DNA from: a virus
Direction: 5' to 3' (one strand)
IMG/VR virus record: IMGVR_UViG_3300042945_001784
Coordinates: 16,808 to 80,807 of that record
Length of the DNA: 64,000 nucleotides
Shown piece by piece: positions 1,675-34,696 of the stretch. Position numbers and translations under genes: made by a program. Below the pieces are notes generated by a model, which saw nothing but the letters and a program-made list of their open reading frames with translations, ran no database searches and was not told the DNA's origin. Each line of letters begins with the position of its first letter. The stretch's first letter is position 1.

Positions 1675-1843
1675 CAAGATTCAGGCTACAGGAGCTTTTG
1701 ATCCTTTAGTAGATGAATACTCATTCTCTATCTGTAGTGGTTCTCTTGTCGTTACGTTTGATTTCTTAAAAAAGGATGACATTGAACATTTAGTTTCGTG
1801 TCTTTCTTGTATGCTGGTTGACGACGAATCAGCCAACCGATGA
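1667..1843 (+). CDS. Hypothetical protein (58 aa)
   Basis: GTG-started ORF (VSDKIQATGAFDPL...) filling the gap; its stop overlaps the thyX start (ATGA). Confidence 0.45.
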   Translation: MSDKIQATGAFDPLVDEYSFSICSGSLVVTFDFLKKDDIEHLVSCLSCMLVDDESANR

Positions 1844-2493
1844 GCATTGTTGAACTTGTTTGGGCAACGCCAGATGCCGAAGCACTGATCACAAAGATGG
1901 CTCGCGTTTCAGCGCCAGCCAATGAGAACAACATGGAGACTGCTCCTAAGTTGCTCCATTATCTAATTAAACATGCTCACTGGTCGCCATTTGAAATGGC
2001 AAACATGTGCGTAGAGATTCACACAACGCGTGCAATCTCAGCGCAGATCATCCGTCACCGTTCGTTTTCCTTCCAGGAATTCAGTCAACGCTACGCAGAC
2101 ATCAACCTGTTAGGTTCAACTTATGTGCCGCACCTGCGTCGCCAGGATACAAAGAACAGACAGAATTCTGTTGATGATCTTGATGCGGAGATGACCGGTC
2201 AGTATTACCGGCGCATCAGTACTCTTTTTGAAGAAGCTGAACATCTGTATAAAGAGATGGTGAGTTCAGGTGTCGCAAAAGAATGTGCACGTAACATTCT
2301 TCCGCTTGCTTCTCCAACCCGTATCTATATGAATGGGTCCTTGCGTTCATGGATTACTTACATTGCTCTCCGTGAAAAGCACGGTACACAAATGGAACAC
2401 ATGCAGATTGCAAAGGACGCTAAGAAAATTTTCTGTGGTCAGTTTCCTACGATTGCAGAAGCTCTTGGCGGCACTGAAGAATGGACAATCTAA
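1840..2493 (+). CDS. thyX: FAD-dependent thymidylate synthase
   Basis: HWSPFE and the ThyX signature RHRSFSFQEFSQRY; ECARNILP. Confidence 0.97.
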   Translation: MSIVELVWATPDAEALITKMARVSAPANENNMETAPKLLHYLIKHAHWSPFEMANMCVEIHTTRAISAQIIRHRSFSFQEFSQRYADINLLGSTYVPHLRRQDTKNRQNSVDDLDAEMTGQYYRRISTLFEEAEHLYKEMVSSGVAKECARNILPLASPTRIYMNGSLRSWITYIALREKHGTQMEHMQIAKDAKKIFCGQFPTIAEALGGTEEWTI

Positions 2494-2582: not shown

Positions 2583-3530
2583 ATGGACAACAAACTACCT
2601 AAAGTTCCTGAAAAAGCGCTTGAAGCTTTGAAGGATGGCATTCAATCTGTTCTTGATTCTAAAGATTGGACTGGTTTTCTTTCTGCTATACGGTGCATAC
2701 ATGACTATAGTTTCAACAATAAGTTGTTGATCATGATGGCGCAGCACAAGCGTGGATGGGCGTTTAGTCCATTTGTTGCTGGTGCCAGGAAGTGGAACGA
2801 TAAGTTCAATCGGCAACTTAAGAAAGGTGAGTTCACCAATCCCATCTGGATCCTTGCTCCAGTACTCATTAAGAAGACAGATGAGAATGGACAGGTCCTC
2901 TGTCGTGCGGATGGAACGCCAGAGCAAGTGCCGATTCGCTTTCGTGGGGTGAAGGTCTATGACCATCATCAAACAGAGGGAGATCCAATCCCTGAACCAG
3001 ACACCACTGGCATGATGGCACAGCTAGAGGGAGACATTTCCTCGCATGTCATGGATGGTATGGTTGCTGTCGCAAAGCGCCGTAGCGTTGAGGTGCAGCG
3101 TTGTTCTGCAGCTGATCTTGGTTCTGCTTTAGGCCGCTGCTGGTTTGCCAATCAGGGCCGCGCCAGCAAGATTGAGATCAGCTCTGAAATCAATGAGATC
3201 ACTGCTGTCAGTGTCATGGCTCATGAGCTAGGTCACGCCATCCTTCACAACCGTGATGAGTACCAGGAACATGACTCTTCCTCCATCAAAGAACTGGAAG
3301 CTGAGTCAGTTGCTTATCTGGTTTGTTCTCATTACGGCGTGGATCTTGGTCGTCGCAGCTTTCAGTACATTGTTCATCACAACACTGCATCTGATGATGT
3401 CGTTGCAGATCTCTTGAAGTCCGGTGATCGGATTTTCCGTGCCTACGAGGAAATCATTAAGACCACTGATGACTACCTCACGACAGAGCCAGCTCCAGTG
3501 GCTCGACAATTGTTTGTTAGTACTTTATAA
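2583..3530 (+). CDS. ArdC-like ssDNA-binding domain plus zincin metallopeptidase (antirestriction-type protein)
   Basis: N-terminal 'HDYSFNNKLLI...VAGARKW...RQLKKGE...IWILAP...FRGVKVYD..QTEG'; C-terminal HELGHAILH and ELEAESVAYLVCSHYG. Confidence 0.8.
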   Translation: MDNKLPKVPEKALEALKDGIQSVLDSKDWTGFLSAIRCIHDYSFNNKLLIMMAQHKRGWAFSPFVAGARKWNDKFNRQLKKGEFTNPIWILAPVLIKKTDENGQVLCRADGTPEQVPIRFRGVKVYDHHQTEGDPIPEPDTTGMMAQLEGDISSHVMDGMVAVAKRRSVEVQRCSAADLGSALGRCWFANQGRASKIEISSEINEITAVSVMAHELGHAILHNRDEYQEHDSSSIKELEAESVAYLVCSHYGVDLGRRSFQYIVHHNTASDDVVADLLKSGDRIFRAYEEIIKTTDDYLTTEPAPVARQLFVSTL

Positions 3531-3531
3531 T
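3526..3531 (+). promoter_or_regulatory. Putative sigma70 -10 element upstream of a structured intergenic RNA
   Basis: TATAAT overlapping the stop codon, 6 nt before the first hairpin. A second TGGTATAAT lies at 3823-3831. Confidence 0.4.
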
Positions 3532-3537
3532 TTCTTT

Positions 3538-3825
3538 GGTTCTGATCAGACCCTCGTGGCCGCGAGAACGTCCGGTTACTTTCAGGCGTAACTGGATACC
3601 TGATATCACAGAGTGGAAGCTGTGATGTCAACGATGAAGCAGAAAGAGGAATGGGGGCCGACCCTCATTTAAAACCCGTGAACGGGATCCTCTTTTGTTA
3701 AAAATTTTTGCAGGGGCGCAACCCCACCGATAGCTACACGGCAGGGCTGTTCACTTACCAGCAGAAGGAAACCACAAAAACTTCTGCTCCCCAGGGCCTG
3801 ACGTGGTTCTTCTACGGCCCCTTGG
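3538..3825 (+). ncRNA. Unclassified highly structured ncRNA candidate
   Basis: Gap with no ORF of 60 aa or more, containing about nine stems, several with G-U pairs on the + strand, and loop-loop complementarities (see findings). Confidence 0.6.
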
Positions 3826-3861
3826 TATAATAGGTTCTATGTGCTTTACAAAAACCTTACC

Positions 3862-4092
3862 ATGGCCGTATTATGCAAACCCAAGATCATAGGAACAGTA
3901 GCCTGTGATTCCGGTTCAATCGCTCTTGTTGACCCGTCTCATCTTGAAGTATCGAACGCAGATACTGTTCAGCTTCCTCATTGGAATCTGTTTACTTCTG
4001 TTGATACTGAAATGGGGGATGGAGAATTTGTTGTTTACGCTCAACGTGACAACCGTGGTTGTTTGCGTCGAGTCATCATTGAAATTGAATGA
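3862..4092 (+). CDS. Hypothetical protein
   Basis: ORF with 'IGTVACDSGSIALVDP...GDGEFVVY' motif; preceded by TGGTATAAT. Confidence 0.6.
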   Translation: MAVLCKPKIIGTVACDSGSIALVDPSHLEVSNADTVQLPHWNLFTSVDTEMGDGEFVVYAQRDNRGCLRRVIIEIE

Positions 4093-4241
4093 TTTCTACT
4101 TACGTCTTTCTAGTCTGGGTTCTTATTAATATCATCTTTCTATTTAACTTTACGCTTCCGGTTGGTTACCTTGTTATTGTCAACCTGTCCTTTATAGTAG
4201 CCAGTATCCTTTCGGACACTGAACCTTCTAATCGGATATGA
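4089..4241 (+). CDS. Small membrane protein (50 aa)
   Basis: MISTYVFLVWVLINIIFLFNF...; ATGA overlaps at both ends. Confidence 0.5.
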   Translation: MISTYVFLVWVLINIIFLFNFTLPVGYLVIVNLSFIVASILSDTEPSNRI

Positions 4242-4516
4242 GCAACCTGCTTGACCCCAGGCGCGAGCCCAATCGCTGGCTTGCTGCTATGTTTGATCAC
4301 CTTCTCCAGGTTGGCGATGCTGACTCTCTTGATTCTCTTCGTTCTGGTTATTATCAACTTTGTAATGTTGTTGAGCCTGGTTTGATTGACAGTCTATTTC
4401 AACCTTGGATTGAAGCATATCTTCAAGGACTCCAGGAAACGGATGAAACAGAAAACATTCAAAGTATCCAGCGTCCACCGCAGGGGCTAGAGGATCTGCC
4501 GGAACCACTCCAATAA
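4238..4516 (+). CDS. Hypothetical protein
   Basis: Translationally coupled ORF, 92 aa. Confidence 0.55.
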   Translation: MSNLLDPRREPNRWLAAMFDHLLQVGDADSLDSLRSGYYQLCNVVEPGLIDSLFQPWIEAYLQGLQETDETENIQSIQRPPQGLEDLPEPLQ

Positions 4517-4970
4517 TTTCCCCTAACTCATACAACGGTTCAGAAGCGTACGGTGGTCTGTGCCACCAAAACTTTAAGGCTTCCCAATCTACTAACCAGT
4601 CCGGGTGGTATGCCAACCACCTGGACCATGCTTTAAATTGTTTTTCTGGATGCCTTGAAGTGCAATCTAAGTACAGACAGTCACCAGGTTCTATTTGCCA
4701 GCGTGCTAACAACAGGTGTTTAAAGCCTCGATTGATTGATTTGAAACCACCCTTGCCTGTTAGGTGGCTACGCATGTTGCTAGCACGTTTGTTTTTTTTA
4801 TTTCGATACCAATCGTTAAGTTGTCGTTTTGATTTACTAATAGCATAAGCTACACGCCACACCCAATGATTACCGGTAAAGCAAAACTCTGGTGTTAAAA
4901 AGAGTTTGCAATACTGATCATTGATTTTAAACGTAGTAGTGCTACGCTTTCGGGATACTCTATAGGTCAT
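4287..4970 (-). CDS. Hypothetical protein
   Basis: Long Trp-rich ORF, likely start MTYRVSRK; its 3' end overlaps the 4238 ORF antisense. Confidence 0.55.
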   Translation of the reverse strand: MTYRVSRKRSTTTFKINDQYCKLFLTPEFCFTGNHWVWRVAYAISKSKRQLNDWYRNKKNKRASNMRSHLTGKGGFKSINRGFKHLLLARWQIEPGDCLYLDCTSRHPEKQFKAWSRWLAYHPDWLVDWEALKFWWHRPPYASEPLYELGEIIGVVPADPLAPAVDAGYFECFLFHPFPGVLEDMLQSKVEIDCQSNQAQQHYKVDNNQNEENQESQHRQPGEGDQT

Positions 4971-5499: not shown

Positions 5500-7347
5500 A
5501 TGAGACTTGTTCTAGACCTTGAGAGTAATGGATTGTTGCCAGTGATGGACACGATCCATTGTATTGTTCTGCGTGATCTAGATACAGGTAACATCATTAG
5601 CTGTGCTGATCAACCTGGTTATCACAGCCTTGAGATGGCCCTTGATTTTATAAGAGAAGCCACGTTAATTGTTGGGCACAACGTTATCAAGTTTGATATA
5701 CCTGCCCTTAAAAAAATATATCCAAGCTTACAACTTAAACCTAATGTTGAATATTACGATACGTTAGTTGTTAGTAGGGTTATGTGGCCCGAGTTAGAGC
5801 CTGTTGATGCTGCTAAGTTTTCACATATCCCACGTAAATACTTTGGTCGCCACAGCTTAGCAGCCTGGGGTGAGCGCCTTGGCGTAAGCAAGATTAACTT
5901 CAAAGAAGAAAGTAAAAAAGATAACGATGAAGTAGAAGATGTGTGGGAAAGATGGACTCCTACAATGCAAACATATTGTGAAGGTGACGTAGAAGTATCG
6001 ACTAGACTATATGAATATCTTTCCTGCCAACAGCTTGACCCCAGGTGTCAGCAACTAGAGCATGAGTTTGCTCTGGTCATGATGCAGCAGGAAACATTTG
6101 GGTTTCCCTTCAATGAAAAGGCAGCCTATGCGTTGGTCAACACGCTCAAAGCTCGACGCTCTGAGCTTGAGGATGAACTGCAAACAACCTTCCCGCCAAT
6201 CGAGGAAGAACGCTGGTCGGAAAAGACTGGCAAACAACTTAAAACAGAGATTACAGTATTCAATCCTGCCTCCAGGACACAGATCTCGCAGCGGCTACGA
6301 GCTAAGTACCCTGAGATTACATTTGAATCCACGAAAAAGGGTAAGCCCAAGGTGGATGATGACGTTCTGGAATCTCTTGGTCAGAAATATCCAGAAGCTA
6401 AGTTGTTGGCTGAGTACCAACTCTTTAACAAAAGGCTTGGTCAAATCGCAGAGGGGAAGGAAGCGTGGTTAAACCATTGCAGGATCTATAACGATGGCCG
6501 TATTCATGGCGAAGTTATTACTAACACTTGCATTAGCGGCAGATGTAGCCACAAACGGCCCAACATGGCCCAAGTCCCCAGTGTTGGTCACGCTTTTGGA
6601 GCTGAGTGCAGGGCTCTGTTTTATGCTCCTGATGGTTGGTTGTTGGTTGGTGCTGATGCTTCTGGACTCGAACTCAGGGCGCTAGGCTCCTGGCTTGCTT
6701 ACTTTGATGATGGTGAGTACGCCAGGCTAGTCAGCACTGAGGGTTTTGATATCCACACATACAATGCCAAACTCTTTGGGATCTACGATGGTGTAGGCGA
6801 GATCAGCAAGGCTACCCGTGATCTATCGAAGCGGCTTATTTATTGCATCTTGTATGGTGGCGGTGCAAAAAAGACTGGATCCATTATTTCTCCTGACGAA
6901 GGTGAAAATACCCAGTACCAGCAGGGTAAGAAAACCATTGATACGTTCTATCGGAATCTACCTGCTATCAAGAAGCTTAAAGATCTCATCGAAGAACGCA
7001 TTACGCAACGCGGTTATCTTACTGGTATTGACGGCAGACGGTTACAGATTCGCTCTAAACATTCAGCCCTCAACCAACTCCTCCAATCGACGGGAGCGAT
7101 TGCGGTAAAGAAAGCAACAACAATTCTTTATGATGATTTAACTAATGAAGGATTAGTCTTTGCAAAGGACTGGGGATTTGTTGCACACGTACACGATGAA
7201 TATCAGGCTTTAGTTAAGCCTGAGTACGTTGATCTTTATACCAAGCTAGCTATTGATTCGTTCCGTAAATCTGGTGAGTACTTTCAGTTGAAGTGTCCAC
7301 TTACTGGTGAAGCCAGGACAGGTAAGAACTGGCAAGAAACTCACTGA
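5500..7347 (+). CDS. polA: Family A DNA polymerase with 3'-5' exonuclease (T7 gp5-like)
   Basis: Exo I DLESNG, Exo II GHNVIKFD, motif A DASGLELR, motif B KRLIYCILYGG, motif C HVHDE. Confidence 0.96.
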   Translation: MRLVLDLESNGLLPVMDTIHCIVLRDLDTGNIISCADQPGYHSLEMALDFIREATLIVGHNVIKFDIPALKKIYPSLQLKPNVEYYDTLVVSRVMWPELEPVDAAKFSHIPRKYFGRHSLAAWGERLGVSKINFKEESKKDNDEVEDVWERWTPTMQTYCEGDVEVSTRLYEYLSCQQLDPRCQQLEHEFALVMMQQETFGFPFNEKAAYALVNTLKARRSELEDELQTTFPPIEEERWSEKTGKQLKTEITVFNPASRTQISQRLRAKYPEITFESTKKGKPKVDDDVLESLGQKYPEAKLLAEYQLFNKRLGQIAEGKEAWLNHCRIYNDGRIHGEVITNTCISGRCSHKRPNMAQVPSVGHAFGAECRALFYAPDGWLLVGADASGLELRALGSWLAYFDDGEYARLVSTEGFDIHTYNAKLFGIYDGVGEISKATRDLSKRLIYCILYGGGAKKTGSIISPDEGENTQYQQGKKTIDTFYRNLPAIKKLKDLIEERITQRGYLTGIDGRRLQIRSKHSALNQLLQSTGAIAVKKATTILYDDLTNEGLVFAKDWGFVAHVHDEYQALVKPEYVDLYTKLAIDSFRKSGEYFQLKCPLTGEARTGKNWQETH

Positions 7348-16445: not shown

Positions 16446-17144
16446 ATGACTGACCAATTTGTTAGCGCCAACAAAATGGTGCCGCCACGTGAGATTATTG
16501 AACAATGGGCTAATGAAAAGGATTACGACGAACGCGATTGGCTTTACGAGATCCACATAGCAAACTGTGCTGCTGCGTGGGGTGCTAACCAGCAACTAAT
16601 TGCAGATGCAAAGTGGCTGGATCACAATGCCTTGAATGAACCTCACCTAAGGATCACCCCAGTGGGAGAATCATTGAAGGAAGCGATGCGTCCAAAAAGT
16701 ATAAAGGAGCGGGCATTACACGATCTTCATACTGCTTATAACGCGGATCAAATTGATGACCTTGGGAGAAATTCAATGACTAACCAACAACACCCGATCA
16801 CCCCACCGCCGGAGCTGGTAGAGCAGTGGCGCGATTTGCCCGAGTTCACCGATGGGCGGCGAAAGATGATCATGGTCACTCTTTCAAGAGAAAAACTTCT
16901 AGACATCGCCACTCAAGCCGCCCGCTGGGGCGCTGATCAGGAGCTGGAGGCGTGTTGCCATCTGCTGCGACAGCAGGGGTTTGACGTGGTTGACGACCTT
17001 CGCGCGACCCGCCGCCCAAAACTGCCATCATTGAAGGAGCAGGCCCTGAGCGAGTTGAACCTGACTGCTGATCCCAACGGAGCCGAACTTTCACGAACCC
17101 AGGTTGAACTTATCCGCCGCGCATTAGAGCAACTCAATGACTGA
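16446..17144 (+). CDS. In-frame tandem of two family A units (second ATG at 16776)
   Basis: Divergent unit (AAAWGANQQL...RPKSIKERAL) fused to a canonical unit (MTNQQHPITPPPEL...). Confidence 0.65.
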   Translation: MTDQFVSANKMVPPREIIEQWANEKDYDERDWLYEIHIANCAAAWGANQQLIADAKWLDHNALNEPHLRITPVGESLKEAMRPKSIKERALHDLHTAYNADQIDDLGRNSMTNQQHPITPPPELVEQWRDLPEFTDGRRKMIMVTLSREKLLDIATQAARWGADQELEACCHLLRQQGFDVVDDLRATRRPKLPSLKEQALSELNLTADPNGAELSRTQVELIRRALEQLND

Positions 17145-34536: not shown

Positions 34537-34621
34537 GGGAGCGTGGCGGAATTGGTATACGCTGCGGACTTAAAATCCGTTGGTCTCGACCTTGTGGGTT
34601 CAAGTCCCACCGCTCCTACCA
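34537..34621 (+). tRNA. trnL: tRNA-Leu(TAA)
   Basis: GGGAGCG/CGCTCCT acceptor, anticodon arm GCGGA-CTTAAAA-TCCGT, long variable arm, GGTTCAAGTCC, encoded CCA. Confidence 0.93.
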
Positions 34622-34622
34622 C

Positions 34623-34696
34623 CGGGATATAGCGCAGCTTGGTAGCGCATCTGCTTTGGGAGCAGAGGGCCGCAGGTTCGAATCCTGCTATCCCGA
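34623..34696 (+). tRNA. trnP: tRNA-Pro(TGG)
   Basis: CGGGATA/TATCCCG acceptor, TCTGC-TTTGGGA-GCAGA anticodon arm, GGTTCGAATCC; CCA not encoded. Confidence 0.93.

Follow-up and report, generated by a model that had tools for sequence, protein, structure and literature searches.

Convergent small-RNA genes M1 and M2 on opposite strands of an intergenic gap in a cyanophage genome

Two conserved units in one gap

The window analyzed here is a stretch of 64,000 nucleotides (nt), positions 16,808 to 80,807 of the IMG/VR virus record IMGVR_UViG_3300042945_001784, which comprises 80.8 kb and is estimated to be 94% complete; all coordinates are those of the window. Within a replication-type gene module it contains a gap (3531–3861) without any open reading frame (ORF) of 60 amino acids (aa) or more, which a first-pass annotation had flagged as a possibly undescribed large phage non-coding RNA of ∼290 nt. 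We found that the gap holds two convergent small-RNA genes on opposite strands, named M1 (+ strand) and M2 (minus strand), and not one RNA. The locus is indeed structured, selected and non-coding and carries a true pseudoknot, but it comprises two genes. M1 matches no family, whereas M2 on the minus strand has kin in the Rfam family CyVA-1 (RF02965).

The division became apparent when the gap was compared with 13 related viral loci, collected via the ArdC-like protein encoded next to it. Two separately conserved blocks were observed, M1 at ∼3531–3703 and M2 at ∼3713–3862. Because these halves lie 215–806 nt apart in relatives, with genes between them, the gap consists of two units. The strands differ, too. 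The annotation had placed the G-U pairs of the longer stems on the + strand, and this is correct for 3538–3700, where 65 G-U stand against 7 A-C alignment cells and thereby assign M1 to the + strand. For 3705–3821 the opposite applies: M2 is assigned to the minus strand because 80 G-U cells are found there against 9 A-C cells, and a nearly invariant tandem U.G/G.U in its helix P3 would read A-C/C-A on the + strand. A single + strand RNA of ∼290 nt with several long-range pseudoknots is contradicted by these observations and is in our view hardly tenable. The whole gap does fold well on that strand, beating 100 of 100 shuffles (z −3.97; minus strand z −1.65), and contigs from RNA libraries (see below) cross the M1/M2 joint; however, the contigs are silent on strand.

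The individual helices fit the same division. Compensatory changes in relatives were found for most of the stems that had been read from the letters alone, namely CTCG/CGAG (3553–3566), TCCGGTTAC/GTAACTGGA (3571–3596), TGATATCACAG/CTGTGATGTCA (3601–3630), the multibranch AAAGAGGA/TCCTCTTT with both inner hairpins (3643–3695), GCAGAAG/CTTCTGC (3761–3787) and GGGCC/GGCCC (3794–3820). The two TATAAT boxes said to flank the element are present at 3526–3531 and 3826–3831. The best-supported item of all is the proposed loop contact AACCAC (3770–3775)/GTGGTT (3803–3808), which lies within M2. In contrast, a GGGG/CCCC hairpin (3713–3725) is not the conserved pairing: GGGG 3713–3716 pairs with CCCC 3789–3792 in a closing helix, and CCCC 3722–3725 belongs to an 11-bp helix (3719–3729 with 3739–3749), so that this hairpin is replaced by Pc and P3 of M2. 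Two further loop contacts would cross from one unit to the other and neither is conserved. AGTGGA/TTCACT is intact in five of the 12 loci having both parts, each of the remaining seven showing one or more mismatches without compensation, and TCAGGC/GCCTGA is broken already in the 96%-identical relative L016, its loop being missing or altered elsewhere.

Two of the checks that had been suggested for the element, a search against Rfam and a test of homologues for covariation, were carried out: compensatory changes were found for M1 and for M2, and neither reaches the threshold of any family. As had been noted, transfer-messenger RNA (tmRNA), RNase P, signal recognition particle (SRP) RNA and hammerhead sequences are not seen; there is no gathering-score match. 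In the window as a whole Rfam 15 yields at gathering score no tmRNA, RNase P, SRP RNA, 6S RNA, group I intron, known self-cleaving ribozyme or riboswitch, and ARAGORN finds no tmRNA; in 3400–3950 none of these families appears even at E ≤10. A distant blastn search of 3400–3950 against GenBank phages gave zero matches. Covariance-model searches show that M1 and M2 are each present once in the 80.8-kb genome. We rejected a protein-coding reading of either unit, since M2 core lengths differ by non-multiples of three and in four of 21 cores neither strand offers an open frame, and of the 41 cores of M1, 27 are closed in every + frame. The features of the locus are collected in Table 1.

Table 1. 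Features of the M1/M2 locus and its neighbours in window coordinates; promoter elements and RNA ends are predicted
Feature	Position	Strand	Remarks
M1 promoter (putative)	3503..3531	+	−35 TCGACA 3503–3508, 17-nt spacer, −10 TATAAT 3526–3531
M1 RNA, ∼163 nt	3538..3700	+	ends predicted
M1 5′ short hairpin	3538–3552	+	
M1 hairpin A	3553–3566	+	
M1 variable hairpin B	3570–3597	+	
M1 hairpin C	3602–3629	+	conserved loop AGUGGAAG
M1 conserved linker	3630–3643	+	AACGAUGAAGCA
M1 three-way junction D	3644–3694	+	inner hairpins 3651–3668 and 3675–3686
M1 U-rich tail	from 3695	+	
A5T5 tract	3700..3709	both	common to both converging units; U-run for each
M2 RNA, ∼120 nt	3821–3700	minus	ends predicted
M2 P1, 5′ hairpin	3794–3820	minus	17-nt loop
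M2 closing helix Pc	3789–3793 with 3712–3716	minus	
M2 P2	3760–3788	minus	13-nt loop
M2 junction	3750–3759	minus	CUGGUAAGUGAA; position of unpaired part
M2 P3	3719–3749	minus	conserved tandem U.G/G.U
M2 kissing-loop pseudoknot	3769..3809	minus	P1 loop GAACCAC 3803–3809 with P2 loop GUGGUUU 3769–3775
Likely M2 −10 box TATTAT	3827..3832	minus	reverse reading of palindromic TATAATA; predicted
ThyX gene	1840–2493		upstream of gap
ArdC-N/metalloprotease-like gene	2583–3530		upstream of gap
Small conserved ORF (MAVLCKPK..., weak phrog_5209)	3862–4092	+	downstream of gap, divergent from M2
phrog_38455 gene, ∼200-aa protein	4287–4970	minus	downstream of gap
Family A DNA polymerase	5500–7347		downstream of gap

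M1, an uncatalogued RNA family

M1 is an RNA family of ∼165 nt that is not catalogued and displays very strong covariation. Its single-sequence minimum free energy fold (−61.4 kcal/mol, z −3.45) is identical to the conserved structure. We built a first covariance model (R2) from eight close sequences and detected M1 in 15 viral loci (12 distinct sequences), with 98.2% of the cells paired and 25 of 33 pairs changed on both sides. A pattern scan of a metagenome collection gave 93 stretches; the matches listed comprise 80 loci, 45 of which contain a full-length M1 match at E ≤0.01. In 41 distinct sequences, aligned by fitting to the model and hence in favour of the structure, 97.1% of the cells are paired and 29 of 33 pairs are double-changed, with covariation in five helices. 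None of 500 shuffles was as good, and slid controls reached 35–46%. From a plain MAFFT alignment of the 12 sequences RNAalifold recovered hairpins A and C and the inner hairpin D1 (23 pairs, 10 double-changed), though not the closing helix of D or D2. All top mutual-information pairs of M1 lie in helices of the model; a search for extra tertiary pairs in the same data showed only these known helices and hairpin B. As defined here, the family comprises hairpins A and C, the linker CGAUGAAGCA and a three-way junction with a GGGCCG(C)ACCC hairpin, all of which are present in the window. The window itself scores 167 bits (3538–3706) with R2 and 144 bits with the broader model R3, but these matches arise by construction since its sequence was used in model building.

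A near-consensus promoter of the sigma-70 type precedes M1: TCGACA..TATAAT (3503–3531) shows 11 of 12 consensus matches in a consensus scan and probably serves as the M1 promoter, placing the RNA start 7 nt past the −10 box. Close relatives have kept the block GGCTCGACAA..TATAAT, and distant members carry a −10-like box at a constant distance ahead of GGTTCTG. A U-rich tail follows the junction in the window, L018, L022, L026 and L027.

On the M1 strand we observed no Rfam match at E ≤10, either in the window or in the relatives scanned. R2 also gave no M1 in 151 genomes of the cyanobacterial phylum; R2 is a narrow model and the search had no positive control, so that this empty result shows nothing. 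With R3 no M1 was detected in loci that carry M2 only or beside true CyVA-1 loci. A tmRNA-like M1 with a resume codon at GCA was considered and rejected: the window and L031 do not have a conserved frame in common, and ARAGORN is negative. An initial M1 pattern in viral contigs gave 63 stretches, 52 of them new, of which only two (L102 and L118) are M1; the remaining new ones are unrelated coding DNA having GAGTKGAAGC...GATGAAGCA in common. Literature on CyVA-1, on cyanophage non-coding RNAs and pseudoknots and on the protein domain DUF4278 (see below) describes neither M1 nor the phage form of M2; as far as searched, M1 and the arrangement of M2, cargo gene and M1 are undescribed.

M2 and its relationship to CyVA-1

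M2 consists of a 5′ hairpin (P1) and a three-way junction in which Pc is stacked on P2, with P3 as the additional helix. A pattern search gave 24 viral stretches and 21 distinct sequences, which were aligned with MAFFT without structure fitting. RNAalifold predicted 29 pairs, 22 of them double-changed; with the pseudoknot added 96.7% of the cells are paired and 26 of 36 pairs are changed on both sides. No shuffle among 500 reached any of these measures, and slid controls gave 41–53%. The kissing helix between the loops of P1 and P2 comprises seven pairs with 100% of the cells paired and four pairs changed on both sides. The covariance-model match in the window scores 132.6 bits.

A likely −10 box ends 5–6 nt ahead of P1, and CTATTATA is kept at a constant distance in 12 of the 21 sequences. 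On the + strand the same palindromic TATAATA may serve the small gene 3862–4092. On the minus strand of the window, hairpin 3727→3710 and the tail after it resemble a terminator, and the A5T5 tract probably acts in termination. We also considered a riboswitch-like rearrangement of M2. In the window P3/Pc and a hairpin GGGGUUGCGCCCC with U-run are mutually exclusive; other members are without a comparable hairpin and U-run, and the switch remains speculative.

The sole recurring sub-threshold Rfam match, always on the strand of M2 and located on P1, is CyVA-1. This motif is listed by Rfam as ‘Gene; sRNA’ (RF02965; Weinberg et al. 2017, PMC5737381), and its expression has been reported in halite cyanobacteria (PMC7002113). 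The window scores 15.3 bits over model positions 40–66 only, compared with a gathering score of 41.4. Three of the 10 relatives scanned reach 27.3, 26.2 and 26.1 bits, and none of 12 relatives attains the gathering score. P1 corresponds to the main CyVA-1 hairpin with its 17-nt loop GAAGGAGAaCGACGUCA: the window loop GUAGAAGAACCACGUCA has the same length and 14 of 17 letters in common with it, and is kept across the 21 M2 sequences. However, M2 is without the outer helix (model positions 1–6 with 72–77) and the small 5′ hairpin of CyVA-1, for which there is no room because the likely −10 box lies so close to P1.

Of 151 genomes sampled from the cyanobacterial phylum, 14 contain true CyVA-1, and these 14 measure 3.5–8.4 Mb. 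In all 14 loci a second hairpin lies outside the Rfam model, after the 77-nt motif. It carries a 13-nt U-rich loop (A/G)UUU(U/C)U-NNN-G(U/C)(U/C)UCC in which the variable letters form pairs with those of the main loop; model R1 matches the hairpin (model positions 56–80) in 13 loci. This kissing pair is that of P1 and P2 in M2. Given the P1 match and the common kissing pair, M2 is a viral relative of CyVA-1 in trimmed and rearranged form, and on these comparisons of sequence and structure we regard it as the phage form of a cyanobacterial CyVA-1-type RNA. The 3′ domain of M2 (CUGGUAAC junction, P3 with tandem G.U, closing helix) is unlike the cyanobacterial 3′ part, and M2 is phage-borne whereas CyVA-1 resides in cyanobacterial genomes. 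A catalogued yet unexplained small RNA of cyanobacteria thus has a viral counterpart that is widespread.

What Rfam models as CyVA-1 is only the 5′ part of a longer RNA in the cell; in each of the 14 loci (L069–L082) the kissing hairpin and a further 3′ domain lie beyond it. In L069 there are two CyVA-1 copies, each ahead of a paralogous ORF of 137–142 aa.

Likenesses to other RNAs are fainter. Cyano-2 (RF01702) matches P2/P3 of M2 on the minus strand (hairpin, CUGG, long hairpin) with 16.1 bits (E 0.11), compared with a gathering score of 40, and the relatives scanned contain no match save a 10-bit fragment in L005; we treat this as chance or a very remote relationship. In form M2 resembles the prohead (packaging) RNA of phi29, a phage RNA of ∼120 nt with a three-way junction and two mutually complementary loops, whose intermolecular pairing forms a ring on the packaging motor in small protein-primed phages. 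M2 differs in that it has no Rfam match to that RNA, belongs to an 80.8-kb genome with a family A polymerase, and may pair within or between molecules.

M2 also occurs outside two-RNA loci. It was found without M1 in the examined parts of nine phage loci (L015, L017, L023, L024, L032–L035, L038) and in two genome contigs (L043, L046), in both of which the kissing loop is kept. These two are the only real ones, by the M2 model, among 23 stretches that the pattern gave in genome contigs; the rest look like chance. The match in the L046 genome is the only one among 101 genomes of its family, in which true CyVA-1 is absent (0 of 101). The L046 genome (3 Mb) carries photosystem reaction-centre genes (296 bits), and genomes of this small-genome family measure 1.3–2.7 Mb. 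In this genome M2 is separated by ∼1 kb from a gene for glutaminase (Pfam 335 bits) and directly follows an ORF with a C-terminus that resembles, by eye, a helix-turn-helix antitoxin. In L017, L023 and L034 it directly follows two tandem LAGLIDADG-type endonuclease-like ORFs (one with 35 bits in Pfam), and a tail-fibre-like gene and an endolysin gene come after it, a setting unlike that of the window.

The cargo slot and possible functions

M2 accompanies M1 in 36 of 47 M1 loci, always on the opposite strand and convergent; the loci were not de-duplicated, and L141 and L102 give identical coordinates. Among the 11 others, five (L151, L154, L161, L172, L192) have less than 210 nt beyond M1 and cannot inform on M2, and six have room but no M2. 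A search with filters off in four M1-only loci (L181, L162, L193, L118) gave no M2. The distance between the two matches is ≤0 nt in two loci, 215–241 nt in 25, 528–551 nt in three and 770–806 nt in six. In 32 of the 36 two-RNA loci a DUF4278-like ORF (Pfam 29.4 bits, cut-off 25.3) lies in this slot, always on the strand of M2. In the longer slots a second gene of ∼180 aa is added, and in L173 there is cargo on the strand of M1. In contrast, the slot is empty in the window, in L016-type contigs, in L176 and in the divergent L177, with both RNAs intact and both folds kept with compensatory changes, and DUF4278 is absent from the window's own genome. The empty-slot variant represents a natural control and shows that the RNAs are retained in their own right.

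DUF4278 is the hallmark of the IF17-type factor that inactivates glutamine synthetase, and the cyanobacterial genes for it have been described as usually residing behind glutamine riboswitches (Klaehn et al. 2018, PMC6212724). The fixed convergent layout around an IF17-like gene connects the locus, in a concrete and testable way, with the control of cyanobacterial glutamine synthetase by RNA. As a structured RNA that precedes a DUF4278 gene in the same orientation M2 resembles these riboswitches (glnA, RF01739; Downstream-peptide, RF01704); unlike them it also occurs without such a gene, namely in the examined parts of 11 other loci, and neither family matches (E ≤10) the window, any of 10 relatives or the spacer of L005 (4850–5270).

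Two observations on cargo and M1 concern other arrangements. In L145, L165, L209 and L173 the second cargo gene encodes ∼180–194 aa, belongs to one of two unrelated types and lies in either orientation, which looks like a hot spot of auxiliary genes. In the M1-only loci L181, L162 and L193 M1 is preceded by a DUF4278-like ORF in divergent orientation and followed, within 70–300 nt and on its own strand, by a conserved gene of ∼255 aa (MKLLKFS...), which makes this a second layout that combines M1 with DUF4278.

We were able to trace the locus in RNA libraries. A search gave 22 runs, 19 recorded as RNA and most from rivers, each of which matches at most a quarter of the words sampled from 1 kb of sequence around the gap. 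All four river metatranscriptome runs that were compared yielded contigs of 233–245 nt covering almost only 3553/3581 to 3787/3813 and carrying L016-type base differences. A longer RNA contig from a further relative extends from M1 hairpin C through M2 to 4300. Cover is zero at 3504–3537 in all four runs, which we do not use as evidence.

To our knowledge only few structured phage RNAs have a conserved tertiary contact, and the majority of these proved to have a specific role. For M1 and M2 the folds, the strands, the linkage and the family relationships are established, and pairing is under purifying selection. We propose that they act as discrete, stable RNAs in trans, with M2 as a mimic or decoy of CyVA-1; we put the proposal as a whole at roughly even chances and its last step at much less. 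It is favoured because both RNAs persist around an empty slot and the host homologue CyVA-1 stands alone. M1 would be transcribed from its near-consensus promoter and fold into consecutive hairpins, with a three-way junction and then a U-rich tail at the 3′ end. M2 would probably start just after its −10 box and fold into a 5′ hairpin and a three-way junction locked by the 7-bp loop–loop pseudoknot. Both would be made as discrete transcripts converging on the shared A5T5 tract, with the compact 3′ junctions and the U-runs ending them. M2 would then most likely engage a host factor that binds the host's own CyVA-1 RNA, and M1 would be a partner of M2 or a second RNA of this kind.

Several observations weigh against this proposal. 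The RNA contigs document presence in RNA libraries, not strand, ends or level, and the libraries may contain DNA. The single-sequence fold of M2 is only modestly above shuffles (z −1.99), as calculated with a program that cannot model the pseudoknot. The promoter scan of the minus strand gave no −35 element for the M2 −10 box; in L017, L023 and L034 no −10 is obvious and M2 directly follows a same-strand ORF, so that it can be part of longer transcripts. The DUF4278 gene that follows M2 in most two-RNA loci fits a leader role at least equally well, and by eye no U-run terminator was seen between the two. The binding of a protein in trans is pure conjecture.

Such a leader is the core of the main alternative, in which the locus is a cis-acting cargo operon: M2 would be the 5′ leader, possibly the sensor, of the DUF4278/IF17-like message, M1 a convergent antisense RNA overlapping its 3′ end, and the window would retain the same controls around an emptied slot. 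That 32 of the 36 two-RNA loci carry a DUF4278-like ORF, never on M1's strand, speaks for it, as does the extra M1 helix of relatives, whose 3′ strand (GCUUCA) overlaps the DUF4278 stop codon. Since DUF4278 genes of cyanobacteria are normally controlled by glutamine riboswitches (PMC6212724) and the phage spacer contains no known glutamine riboswitch, another RNA may do that job. However, both RNAs are intact without the gene in the four empty-slot cases and M2 is found without DUF4278 in the examined parts of 11 other loci, DUF4278 ORFs are absent from the neighbourhood of all 14 true CyVA-1 loci, and the cargo of L173 lies on the strand of M1. We consider the operon a serious but rather unlikely explanation. 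A broader version joins M2, the DUF4278 gene and M1 into an RNA-run module that would reach into host nitrogen assimilation, with M2 as a new sensing or decoy RNA in place of the glutamine riboswitches before IF17-type inhibitors, M1 as its convergent antisense partner and the empty-slot RNAs acting on the host's system; this is speculative and quite unlikely.

Still less probable, in our opinion, are mere boundaries of a gene-exchange hot spot, in which the conserved blocks would provide bidirectional terminators or insulators and homology arms for cargo swaps and their RNA products would be functionless, comparable to promoter/stem-loop cassettes of the T4 type. Slot content does vary (nothing, DUF4278, DUF4278 with the ∼180-aa gene, other genes) in either orientation, the M2 DNA of L006 is 97% conserved compared with 81% for the neighbouring protein, and homing-endonuclease-like ORFs abut M2 in L017, L023 and L034. 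Against this, helices are kept by compensatory changes despite sequence drift, which indicates selection on RNA pairing and not on DNA identity. Conserved loops, a junction and a covarying pseudoknot exceed the needs of a terminator, strand-specific G-U pairs indicate RNA, and CyVA-1 stands alone in cyanobacterial chromosomes.

The surroundings of the gap yielded some minor observations. The only gathering-score Rfam matches in the whole window are a pair of neighbouring tRNA genes at 34537–34696 (+), for Leu(UAA) and Pro(UGG). The likely promoter of the small ORF 3862–4092 uses the palindromic TATAATA in common with the −10 box of M2, and the N-terminus of this ORF is kept in distant relatives with GTG starts. 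Two + strand ORFs (4238–4516 and 4660–4848) overlap the minus-strand phrog_38455 gene and are probably spurious. Homologues of the phrog_38455 protein are encoded upstream of M2 and on its strand in 15 further loci (blastp gave 16 rows besides the query, two of which represent one contig).

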